In this document: in pieces, positions 1 through 33,649 of the stretch
Layout of the letters: every line of letters begins with the position of its first letter
How positions within the stretch are numbered: the stretch's first letter is position 1
Position numbers and translations under genes: made by a program
Notes under the pieces: model-generated
Database searches by the model: none
What the model saw: the letters and a program-made list of their open reading frames with translations, nothing else
What the model was told of the DNA's origin: nothing
Source: Escherichia coli
Lineage (GTDB): Bacteria > Pseudomonadota > Gammaproteobacteria > Enterobacterales > Enterobacteriaceae
Direction: 5' to 3' (one strand)
Length of the DNA stretch: 33,649 bases
NCBI RefSeq assembly: GCF_003334255.1
Contig: NZ_QOWU01000057.1

Positions 1-1288
<1,288 letters not shown>

Positions 1289-1293
1289 AATAA

Positions 1294-2025
<732 letters not shown>

Positions 2026-2038
2026 GCTGAAGAAATAA

Positions 2039-2722
<684 letters not shown>

Positions 2723-3196
2723 TTAACTTAAAGAGTCTGTTTCAGGACATGAAATATCCAATCCGGGCAGACGGGTAATGATTCTGCTCATCACCACACC
2801 TGCCAGCAATGCAGGAATGATGCGGACAACGAGACTGTCACCAGAAAGAATGTTTTCAAACAACTCCGAGGAAGCCATGCCCTTAATATGTACAATAACT
2901 GCACAATAGATCTCGGTGATAACGACGCCACCTATGCCACCAGCCAGACAACGATAATTTTTCTGTGACCCGATCTTTTCCGGCAGACAGGCGACCATCA
3001 CGCCGGTTAACAATGCAGGAATAGCTCCCGTAGTAATCGACAATAAGAGAAACAATGGAAGTACCTGTATTATTACCAAAAGAACCAGCGGTTCTTTTGC
3101 GAAGAATATGTAGAGGACAAGAAACAGAACACCAATTAACGGTCCTAAAACCGCAAAATAAAGTCCGTGATGTATTACCCGACGTGAAACAGACAT
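2723..3196 (-). CDS. cbrB: CbrB (YieI), small inner-membrane protein (157 aa)
   Basis: ORF 2723..3229 trimmed to ATG at 3196 (MSVSRRVIHHGLYFAVLGPLIG…); strongly hydrophobic, several predicted transmembrane segments. Confidence 0.8.
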   Translation of the reverse strand: MSVSRRVIHHGLYFAVLGPLIGVLFLVLYIFFAKEPLVLLVIIQVLPLFLLLSITTGAIPALLTGVMVACLPEKIGSQKNYRCLAGGIGGVVITEIYCAVIVHIKGMASSELFENILSGDSLVVRIIPALLAGVVMSRIITRLPGLDISCPETDSLS

Positions 3197-3262
3197 ATCA
3201 AACACCCTTAACTTACCTTTGAGCGCCAATTTAAGCGGGGTAAGTGAAGGGAGTGTGAAGAA

Positions 3263-3928
3263 CTATGCCGTAATATCCCAACCACGCGCTTTCCACAGTT
3301 CCGGTAACTGCGAAAGATGGGTAAAGGTGGTGACTTTCGGGTGAACGATCGGCTTATTGTGCGGGTCGGCGCAGAAGTAGAACACTTCCATACCTGCGTC
3401 GATACCAGATTGCGCACCGGCAACTGAGTCATCAACCAGAATGCAGTTTTCTACATTTACATTCATCGCTTTTGCCGCATGGAACATTAACGCCGGGTCT
3501 GGCTTCCAGCGCTGAATATCGTAGCCGCTGAACAGTTTATCCGGGAAGTAGTGCAACATATTCAGCTTGCCCATAGAATGCTGCATTTTGTTATTTGGGC
3601 CGTTAGATACCACACACATTGGCGCAGTGATCGCTGACAGGAGCGCTCCAGCCCCTTCGATGGCTTCCAGTTCTGAATCGAACAGCCGAGCGACTTCTGC
3701 ACGGTAAACGTGTTCAGCTTCTGTTTTCGCTAACGTAACACCATGTTCAAGGGAAACAATATCGATAATTTCGTACAGTTTTACACCTTTGAAACGTTTG
3801 AATACCTCTTCAGGATCGAGCGTAATACCAAATTCCTGAAACATCGTTACATATGCGCGGGAGCAAATGACTTCACTGTCGACCAGCGTACCGTCGCAGT
3901 CGAAAAATACCGCTTCTATCTGGGACAT
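3263..3928 (-). CDS. yieH: YieH, HAD-superfamily phosphatase (6-phosphogluconate phosphatase) (221 aa)
   Basis: N-terminal HAD motif VFFDCDGTLVDS; 221 aa; K-12 synteny. Confidence 0.9.
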   Translation of the reverse strand: MSQIEAVFFDCDGTLVDSEVICSRAYVTMFQEFGITLDPEEVFKRFKGVKLYEIIDIVSLEHGVTLAKTEAEHVYRAEVARLFDSELEAIEGAGALLSAITAPMCVVSNGPNNKMQHSMGKLNMLHYFPDKLFSGYDIQRWKPDPALMFHAAKAMNVNVENCILVDDSVAGAQSGIDAGMEVFYFCADPHNKPIVHPKVTTFTHLSQLPELWKARGWDITA

Positions 3929-16974: not shown

Positions 16975-18378
16975 GTGTCACTTTCGCTTTGGCAGCAGTG
17001 TCTTGCCCGATTGCAGGATGAGTTACCAGCCACAGAATTCAGTATGTGGATACGCCCATTGCAGGCGGAACTGAGCGATAACACGCTGGCCCTGTACGCG
17101 CCAAACCGTTTTGTCCTCGATTGGGTACGGGACAAGTACCTTAATAATATCAATGGACTGCTAACCAGTTTCTGCGGAGCGGATGCCCCACAGCTGCGTT
17201 TTGAAGTCGGCACCAAACCGGTGACGCAAACGCCACAAGCGGCAGTGACGAGCAACGTCGCGGCCCCTGCACAGGTGGCGCAAACGCAGCCGCAACGTGC
17301 TGCGCCTTCTACGCGCTCAGGTTGGGATAACGTCCCGGCCCCGGCAGAACCGACCTATCGTTCTAACGTAAACGTCAAACACACGTTTGATAACTTCGTT
17401 GAAGGTAAATCTAACCAACTGGCGCGCGCGGCGGCTCGCCAGGTGGCGGATAACCCTGGCGGTGCCTATAACCCGTTGTTCCTTTATGGCGGCACGGGTC
17501 TGGGTAAAACTCACCTGCTGCATGCGGTGGGTAACGGCATTATGGCGCGCAAGCCGAATGCCAAAGTGGTTTATATGCACTCCGAGCGCTTTGTTCAGGA
17601 CATGGTTAAAGCCCTGCAAAACAACGCGATCGAAGAGTTTAAACGCTACTACCGTTCCGTAGATGCACTGCTGATCGACGATATTCAGTTTTTTGCTAAT
17701 AAAGAACGATCTCAGGAAGAGTTTTTCCACACCTTCAACGCCCTGCTGGAAGGTAATCAACAGATCATTCTCACCTCGGATCGCTATCCGAAAGAGATCA
17801 ACGGCGTTGAGGATCGTTTGAAATCCCGCTTCGGTTGGGGACTGACTGTGGCGATCGAACCGCCAGAGCTGGAAACCCGTGTGGCGATCCTGATGAAAAA
17901 GGCCGACGAAAACGACATTCGTTTGCCGGGCGAAGTGGCGTTCTTTATCGCCAAGCGTCTACGATCTAACGTACGTGAGCTGGAAGGGGCGCTGAACCGC
18001 GTCATTGCCAATGCCAACTTTACCGGACGGGCGATCACCATCGACTTCGTGCGTGAGGCGCTGCGCGACTTGCTGGCATTGCAGGAAAAACTGGTCACCA
18101 TCGACAATATTCAGAAGACGGTGGCGGAGTACTACAAGATCAAAGTCGCGGATCTCCTTTCCAAGCGTCGATCCCGCTCGGTGGCGCGTCCGCGCCAGAT
18201 GGCGATGGCGCTGGCGAAAGAGCTGACTAACCACAGTCTGCCGGAGATTGGCGATGCGTTTGGTGGCCGTGACCACACGACGGTGCTTCATGCCTGCCGT
18301 AAGATCGAGCAGTTGCGTGAAGAGAGCCACGATATCAAAGAAGATTTTTCAAATTTAATCAGAACATTGTCATCGTAA
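16975..18378 (+). CDS. dnaA: DnaA, chromosomal replication initiator protein (467 aa)
   Basis: ORF 16963..18378 trimmed to the GTG at 16975 ([17 protein letters not shown]…); Walker [12 protein letters not shown]; C-terminal DnaA-box-binding domain. Confidence 0.97.
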
Positions 18379-23020: not shown

Positions 23021-23049
23021 GCCTGATGCGCTACGCTTATCAGGCCTAC
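23021..23049. repeat. REP (repetitive extragenic palindromic) element, first of a BIME-like pair downstream of gyrB
   Basis: GCCTGATGCGCTACGCTTATCAGGCCTAC is an imperfect palindrome matching the E. coli REP family consensus as I recall it. Confidence 0.65.
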
Positions 23050-23084
23050 GAAAATCTTGCAATGTATTGAATTTTCATGATTTT

Positions 23085-32643: not shown

Positions 32644-32976
32644 TCAGTTATCAGGCATTCTGGCCGGTGGAATAACCGCATTGGTGGCTTGCGCGTTGGC
32701 TTCGCTTTTTTCAACGCGCGAGCGCACCGAGCTGTCTTTGCGGAACACATCCCACGGCAGTAAAAGCGTGTCCATCACAGCGGTAAACGGCATATCGAGA
32801 ATCGCCAGCGACTTAGTGCCCCAGTTGGTTTCATCGTCGCCAATCATGGTTGCGCTGGCGCGGGTGCCGGGATACGTTCCTTCTTTCCCTCCGGTATGGG
32901 ACATCACGCTGGAGCATCCTCCGAGTAATGTCATTCCGCTGCATATCATGAACGCTAACAACACATTTCTTATCAT
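32644..32976 (-). CDS. yidQ: YidQ, DUF1375-family outer-membrane lipoprotein (110 aa)
   Basis: ORF 32644..33051 trimmed to ATG at 32976 (MIRNVLLAFMICSGMTLLGGCSS… = signal peptide with lipobox LGGC); convergent with yidR, 1-nt gap. Confidence 0.8.
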   Translation of the reverse strand: MIRNVLLAFMICSGMTLLGGCSSVMSHTGGKEGTYPGTRASATMIGDDETNWGTKSLAILDMPFTAVMDTLLLPWDVFRKDSSVRSRVEKSEANAQATNAVIPPARMPDN

Positions 32977-33149
32977 AATAAATTCATCTGTTGATCGTGG
33001 GTGTTGGCCTGATGAGTTATAGCGATCCCTTGCTGAAAATAACATCATCATTACGTCGCACTGTGGCGGCTATCGCACTTTAACGTTTCGTGCTGCCCCC
33101 TCAGTCTATGCAATAGACCATAAACTGCAAAAAAAGTCCGCTGATAAGG

Positions 33150-33178
33150 CTTGAAAAGTTCATTTCCAGACCCATTTT
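33150..33178 (+). promoter_or_regulatory. Sigma-32 (heat-shock) promoter of ibpA
   Basis: -35 CTTGAAA (33150..33156) and -10 CCCATTTT (33171..33178) with 14-bp spacer, matching the sigma-32 consensus CTTGAAA-N13-15-CCCCATNT; about 100 nt 5' UTR follows (ibpA UTR is a known ROSE-type RNA thermometer). Confidence 0.65.
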
Positions 33179-33280
33179 TACATCGTAGCCGATGAGGACG
33201 CGCCTGATGGGTGTTCTGGCTACCTGACCTGTCCATTGTGGAAGGTCTTACATTCTCGCTGATTTCAGGAGCTATTGATT

Positions 33281-33577
33281 ATGCGTAACTTTGATTTATC
33301 CCCGCTTTACCGTTCTGCTATTGGATTTGACCGTTTGTTTAACCACTTAGAAAACAACCAGAGCCAGAGTAATGGCGGCTACCCTCCGTATAACGTTGAA
33401 CTGGTAGACGAAAACCATTACCGCATTGCTATCGCTGTGGCTGGTTTTGCTGAGAGCGAACTGGAAATTACCGCCCAGGATAATCTGCTGGTGGTGAAAG
33501 GTGCTCACGCCGACGAACAAAAAGAGCGCACCTATCTGTACCAGGGCATCGCTGAACGCAACTTTGAACGCAGGTAA
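33281..33577 (+). pseudogene. ibpA: ibpA (small heat-shock protein IbpA) truncated after codon 97 of 137 by IS1; fused reading frame adds Arg and stops at TAA 33575..33577 inside the IS1 end
   Basis: N-terminus [68 protein letters not shown]… matches IbpA up to …GIAERNFER, then the sequence switches to the IS1 terminus GGTAATGACTCC at 33573. Confidence 0.85.
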
Positions 33578-33649
33578 TGACTCCAACTTATTGATAGTGT
33601 TTTATGTTCAGATAATGCCCGATGACTTTGTCATGCAGCTCCACCGATT
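33573..33649 (-). mobile_element. insB: IS1 right-end fragment in inverted orientation (terminal inverted repeat at 33573..33595, insB 3' end on - strand 33588..33649); element body lies to the right of the window
   Basis: Exact reverse complement of window positions 1..77; begins GGTAATGACTCCAACTTATTGAT (IS1 terminal repeat as I recall it). Confidence 0.85.

Follow-up and report, generated by a model that had tools for sequence, protein, structure and literature searches.

The question raised by this locus is whether the small heat shock gene ibpA has been broken by the insertion sequence IS1 and, if so, through what kind of event and with what consequences for the cell. The gene lies at the right-hand end of the stretch of Escherichia coli DNA that we analyzed in its entirety (33,649 nucleotides [nt], referred to here as the window). 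A sequence-only reading of this stretch had proposed that the IbpA frame is intact from a sigma-32 promoter and start codon, that it is interrupted by IS1 at codon 97 with insB antisense to ibpA, and that it stops two codons later, removing about 40 C-terminal residues that include the end of the alpha-crystallin domain and the tail used in oligomerization. Our results agree with this description at each of these points, and they extend to the far side of the insertion, which lies beyond the window.

IS1 interrupts ibpA. Using ibpA of E. coli strain H7 as the reference for a base-by-base comparison (the H7 and K-12 proteins are the same), we found that the gene starts with the ATG at 33281 and aligns with K-12 at 100% identity over 292 nt, after which IS1 begins (Table 1). 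Codon 98 is a hybrid, in which one ibpA base is joined by two IS1 bases to form AGG (Arg), and the frame reads ...GIAERNFER(97)-R(98)-stop. The truncated protein therefore has 98 amino acids (aa) instead of 137: native residues 99 to 137 (39 in all) are gone, and K98 has become R. The 137-aa reference protein does not naturally end at this position. On the other side of the junction, the 3' end of insB adjoins ibpA, such that the C terminus of InsB is encoded there and insA and insB are read from the minus strand, antisense to ibpA. The IS1 right-end sequence (GGTAATGACTCC...) at 33573 to 33649, and again at 1 to 77, corresponds exactly to the last 77 nt of the 768-bp IS1A. A complete IS1 is 768 bp long, with insA, insB, and a programmed frameshift; the window contains 77 nt of it at each end, and every contig that bears one of the junctions stops inside IS1.

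Table 1. Coordinates of the ibpA locus and of the IS1 sequences at the two ends of the window.
Feature	Position	Strand	Basis or remark
Second IS1 copy, last 77 nt	1..77	+	Exact reverse complement of 33573-33649; right end faces yieL
Sigma-32-type promoter, CTTGAAA-N14-CCCATTT, intact	33150..33177	+	Pattern search; predicted promoter
ROSE_2 RNA thermometer in the ibpA 5' untranslated region, overlapping the Shine-Dalgarno sequence and start codon, intact	33215..33287	+	Rfam RF01832
ibpA 5' part, 292 nt (codons 1-97 and first base of codon 98)	33281..33572	+	100% identical to ibpA of H7 and K-12, divergent afterwards
IS1 9-bp target TTGAACGCA (ibpA nt 284-292)	33564..33572		Second copy at the far junction in GCA_003334255.1
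IS1 last 77 nt: right inverted repeat (IRR) and insB 3' end	33573..33649	-	Identical, as reverse complement, to the end of the 768-bp IS1A of H7; element runs off the window
TAA stop supplied by the IS1 terminus GGTAATG, ending the 98-aa IbpA	33575..33577	+	Sequence and list of open reading frames

The signals upstream of the gene are unbroken. A candidate sigma-32 promoter fits the pattern of CTTGAAA, a spacer of 13 to 15 nt, and a CCCCATNT-like -10 region. Its form, CTTGAAA-N14-CCCATTT, was matched once in the 33.6-kb window, compared with 0.00 matches expected by chance, while a pattern search with the stricter CCCCAT form of the -10 region returned no match. The RNA thermometer scored 100.4 bits (gathering score, 65) over the full model (positions 1 to 73), and the same ROSE_2 annotation is carried by RefSeq relatives. 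A scan of 32950 to 33649 for sigma-70-type promoters and intrinsic terminators found none.

What remains of the protein identifies the gene but falls short of a complete small heat shock protein. The family model for IbpA (NCBIfam NF008013) matched the 98-aa product over positions 1 to 98 of 137, supporting the original naming of the gene, with a score of 212.7 bits that lies just above the cut-off of 212; the full-length reference scored 295.5 bits over positions 1 to 137. Likewise, the Pfam HSP20 model (PF00011) was covered from position 3 to 60 of 102 in the truncated product, compared with 3 to 102 in the full protein, leaving model positions 61 to 102 missing. On these matches, the broken gene is to be regarded as ibpA by descent and not as a complete member of the IbpA family. 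The fragment retains the N-terminal domain and R93. It lacks approximately 40% of the alpha-crystallin domain, so that the beta-sandwich is incomplete, and it lacks the C-terminal IEI motif (residues 133 to 135), which belongs to the IXI/V class and is present in reference IbpA. In an AlphaFold model, R97 and K98 are located in strand beta7 (PMC10474464), and the break would thus fall within that strand and remove the rest of the sandwich. The IXI motif is reported to be critical for IbpA oligomerization, for chaperone activity, and for mRNA binding and self-repression (PMC10474464, PMC10410725). Given the loss of both the remaining beta-sandwich and the IEI motif, we infer that the allele is probably null in effect for IbpA, while the 98-aa fragment may have residual or dominant-negative activity.

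Because the right-hand IS1 is the end of the contig, the sequence beyond it lies outside the window. The identical 77-nt overhangs into the repeat at both ends suggest that the window represents one complete contig from a short-read assembly of the k=77 de Bruijn type, stopping in IS1 on both sides. We built the product expected from a canonical insertion, consisting of the reverse complement of IS1, a 9-bp duplication, and the remainder of ibpA. At this predicted far junction, the ibpA frame extends backward through 29 codons of the IS1 left end without a stop; consequently, if a k=77 contig began in IS1, its edge would carry an open reading frame of 68 aa. By exact look-up, this predicted frame was found residue for residue at positions 1 to 208 of a 98.7-kb contig in assembly GCA_003334255.1. 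The IS1 left end (GGTGATGCTGCC...) makes up the first 77 nt of the contig and is followed by TTGAACGCA and then AATTCCAG... to the ibpA stop codon, beyond which the contig proceeds through the ibpA-ibpB spacer to an intact 142-aa ibpB, yidE, and yidP. Its nt 78 corresponds to ibpA nt 284, making the duplication exactly 9 bp. IS1 target duplications are 9 bp long and occasionally 8 bp. The sequence-only reading had pointed to the far side of IS1 as the place to look for a 9-bp duplication, for the 3' part of ibpA, and for ibpB, and all three are present in this contig, the duplicated target being the one that it predicted. These findings establish, at least in GCA_003334255.1, a canonical IS1 insertion with ibpB kept, not a deletion. 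Since two rare junctions match to the base and share the same 77-nt edge style, it is by far the most likely that the window and the far-junction contig have a common origin. Two protein variants gave no further link between the window and a single assembly: the 100-aa form that starts at the TTG has no entry on record, and the CbrB variant of the window occurs in 72,286 index blocks, too many to be informative.

Two further features of the far-junction contig can be described. When inspected by eye for a hybrid outward promoter, the junction offered a TTGGCA in the IS1 left end without a convincing -10 partner. In addition, the contig is identical to H7 for 3.6 kb past ibpA, and between its positions 3700 and 5208, in a PTS gene downstream of yidP, it differs from H7 by 22 substitutions in approximately 1.5 kb, a local patch of recombination.

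The allele is real, rare, and common to a few sequenced data sets. Among 5,426 complete E. coli genomes, the ibpA-IS1 junction was found in none (200-nt query across the junction, at least 80% coverage). In 5,418 of these genomes, the gene itself is unsplit, single, and chromosomal; 8 genomes lack it, and in none is it carried on a plasmid. An intact second copy, which the sequence-only reading had raised as a way for the disruption to be silent, is unlikely given that ibpA is strictly single copy in those 5,418 genomes. The 98-aa product has been deposited as CAM3150282.1 ("Hsp20 family protein [Escherichia coli]"), and a public contig index has it encoded on four contigs, making it rare among the 153 billion gene positions indexed; the index has no entry of the product for GCA_003334255.1. 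The reality of the allele and its sharing follow from two further occurrences of the same junction. One is on a 33,733-nt contig of GCA_965136505.1 that reaches 120 nt into IS1 and matches the window without a single difference over 10.4 kb. The other is on a Logan contig of sequencing run ERR1948968 that reaches 7 nt into IS1 and has 0 differences over 6.5 kb. Our search of the literature found no paper on an ibpA allele with an IS1 insertion, and none of the searchable papers mentions these accession numbers.

A second 98-aa IbpA fragment, ending in ...NFERK, was considered as a recurrent truncation at the adjacent codon and rejected, as the contigs that encode it merely end at ibpA nt 294 to 296 and the fragment reflects the edge of the assembly. 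It occurs on 30 or more contigs. Of these, at least 24, with index entries in 51 blocks and mostly short Logan or metagenome contigs, end within 3 nt of one another just past codon 98 and have GAACGC or GAACGT just upstream of the break. These breaks probably reflect strain polymorphism in mixed samples and not mutation.

The remainder of the window is intact. All 34 of the other annotated genes are unbroken, leaving ibpA as the sole exception, and gene order from yieL to ibpA is colinear with a K-12-type map that includes tnaAB, mnmE, yidC, rnpA, rpmH, dnaA, dnaN, recF, gyrB, and the dgo operon. Two small RNAs expected in this conserved region were recognized with Rfam models: the AsdA antisense RNA inside dnaA (17485 to 17565, minus strand, 101.9 bits) and the ES036/CssrF RNA between gyrB and yidB (23042 to 23084, minus strand, 44.8 bits). 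Over 25 kb, the window is 100% identical to chromosomes of commensal and livestock strains of the phylogroup A type, such as H7, 1409, and ZF34. These relatives are rich in IS1, each record having approximately 17 to 40 matches to the end of the element. Relative to H7, divergence is distributed unevenly along the window. From 78 to 3928 (yieL to yieH), there are 44 substitutions and an in-frame length difference of 6 nt in cbrB (474 versus 468 nt), while from 3929 to 33572 (adeP to ibpA) there are 2 substitutions in approximately 29.6 kb. This mosaic boundary probably marks a recombination breakpoint near 3.9 to 4.1 kb.

At the opposite end of the window, the left IS1 meets chromosomal sequence at a point 41 nt before the yieL start codon, and bglH, along with the rest of the bgl operon, is missing on this side. 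An identically oriented IS1 is found in 53 complete E. coli genomes within approximately 500 nt upstream of the position where the window's yieL-side junction falls. Among the matches listed, the distances range from approximately 91 to 447 nt and take at least six different values. The exact yieL-side junction of the window is in none of the matches listed, all of which (and, by extension, presumably all 53) are two-piece matches. The left flanks of the upstream IS1 also differ, with phoU found in H7 and a fragment of bglF in strain 81. From these comparisons, the bgl-yieL border looks like a series of nested deletions adjacent to IS1. With the copy at ibpA, the yieL-side element completes a pair of inverted IS1 copies whose right ends point inward and which flank 33.5 kb of DNA that includes dnaA and gyrB.

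This geometry makes it necessary to weigh an inversion. In such a scenario, replicative transposition of the yieL-side IS1 into ibpA, or later recombination between two IS1 copies in inverted orientation, would have flipped the 33.5-kb segment from yieL through dnaA and gyrB to the truncated ibpA. The gene would still be broken, with its 5' part and promoter placed 33 kb from the 3' part and ibpB and in the opposite orientation. The same IS1 end (IRR) does face inward at both ends of the window on opposite strands, as an intramolecular replicative inversion would predict, and the bgl-yieL border has experienced much IS1-associated rearrangement in this lineage. Furthermore, under a Shapiro-type model all four junctions and the 9-bp duplication would also result from an inversion, and short reads cannot separate this outcome from that of two independent simple insertions. 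Yet independent insertions would land in the same orientation 50% of the time, and the geometry consequently adds little. An inversion would also turn dnaA, gyrB, yidC, and rpmH relative to replication, with counterselection as a likely outcome, and no datum favors it over a simple insertion. IS1 mostly yields simple insertions, which are its usual and well-established outcome. Because orientation amounts to a coin flip and IS1 usually inserts in this simple manner, we consider the inversion to be decidedly unlikely.

An argument can also be made that, in the genome of the window, a deletion or some other rearrangement adjoins the IS1 in ibpA, that the 3' part of ibpA and ibpB are gone or located elsewhere, and that the contig of GCA_003334255.1 belongs to a different isolate. 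The window does stop 77 nt into IS1, and deletions adjacent to IS1 are clear at its other end, in the bgl region. Nevertheless, the near junction is one that none of the complete genomes contains and that is rare in the contig index. The far junction fits it base for base, showing both the canonical 9-bp duplication and a contig edge that is again 77 nt into IS1; two unrelated events with these properties would be very unlikely, and we regard this scenario as highly improbable. Finally, the join between ibpA and IS1 could be chimeric or could represent a minority subpopulation, with the true gene intact. Misjoins can occur where this junction is found, at a contig edge inside a repeat. But the same junction was recovered in three data sets whose contigs reach 77, 120, and 7 nt into IS1, and the reciprocal junction carries a perfect target duplication. 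In addition, the assembly shows no branch at nt 292 and continues into IS1 for all 77 nt, the pattern that would be expected where a wild-type allele is lacking. The chance of an artifact therefore appears to be exceedingly small.

A simple IS1 insertion, along with its expected consequences, is very probably the best explanation of the locus as a whole. According to this explanation, a 768-bp IS1 transposed into chromosomal ibpA after nt 292, in a phylogroup-A-like lineage with many copies of the element. The insertion is antisense to the gene and duplicates the 9-bp target TTGAACGCA, and it spares the promoter and the RNA thermometer. Translation ends two codons into IS1, and the resulting 98-aa fragment, which may be unstable, is predicted to be unable to fold, to oligomerize, to hold substrates, or to repress translation of the ibpA, ibpB, and rpoH mRNAs. 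Transcription from the sigma-32 promoter would enter IS1 and mostly terminate there. Because IS1 insertions are classically strongly polar, ibpB has probably been cut off from the heat shock promoter and would be left with its own minor sigma-54 promoter.

Previous studies provide a basis for anticipating how such a cell would behave. The ibpAB genes are transcribed by sigma-32, and ibpB is also transcribed by sigma-54 (PMC4370416). On its own, IbpB is a poor holdase, and approximately 90% of it is soluble in a strain lacking ibpA (PMC6834283). For this reason, the entire small heat shock protein system would be expected to be functionally down, even if IbpB were produced. In a delta-ibpAB strain, the levels of sigma-32, DnaK, and GroES are higher, the shutoff of sigma-32 is delayed from 10 to 30 min, and recovery after heat shock is slightly delayed, with published phenotypes being mild (PMC10410725). 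By analogy, the allele would lead to slower clearance of aggregates after heat shock, together with slightly raised sigma-32 and heat shock proteins and a slower shutoff. A heat shock phenotype is thus plausible and probably subtle. Broader claims can be made for the locus, namely, that intramolecular replicative transposition of IS1 inverted the 33.5-kb segment containing dnaA, dnaN, recF, gyrB, rpmH-rnpA-yidC, and mnmE or that the loss of IbpA was selected. Taken jointly, we view these claims as unlikely. If the loss had been selected, removal of the IbpA brake on rpoH translation could have raised basal chaperone levels in the lineage.

With 5,418 of 5,426 complete genomes keeping one unsplit copy of the gene, a natural ibpA null is a small curiosity. 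It might offer a test in nature of the recently proposed translational brake that IbpA exerts on sigma-32. Apart from that, the allele simply adds to the IS1 pseudogenes of a commensal lineage rich in IS1, and it is already available in public assemblies.

In its structure, the allele resembles classical cases of IS1 inactivation, including the polar gal and lac mutations and the IS1 pseudogenes of IS1-rich E. coli and Shigella, with which it shares the IS1 ends, the 9-bp duplication, a stop codon supplied by the element, an interrupted coding sequence, and the expectation of downstream polarity. It differs from them in its site, as an insertion at ibpA nt 284 to 292 was found neither among the complete genomes nor in the literature searched. 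In its outcome, the allele resembles the delta-ibpA and delta-ibpAB mutants made in the laboratory (Keio JW3664; BW25113 delta-ibpAB, PMC10410725). IbpA function would be lost in both cases, and we would expect sigma-32 and heat shock proteins to be raised, shutoff to be delayed, aggregate clearance to be slower, and IbpB to be mislocalized. Unlike those deletions, it is a natural allele that retains the promoter, the thermometer, and 97 codons, and thus the truncated fragment may be made; ibpB is intact, but it is separated from the promoter by IS1. A third resemblance is to the IEI-to-AEA and C-terminal truncation mutants of IbpA (Strozecka et al. 2012, as cited in PMC10474464), in which, as they are presented in the citing paper, the IXI motif is likewise lost. 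The loss is larger here in that strands beta7 to beta9 are also removed, which makes misfolding more likely than a defined dimeric species. Taken together, these comparisons place the locus within textbook IS1 insertional inactivation, an ordinary strain-specific knockout that introduces no new mechanism or question, and one whose target is unusual solely for being a gene that is almost never lost in E. coli.
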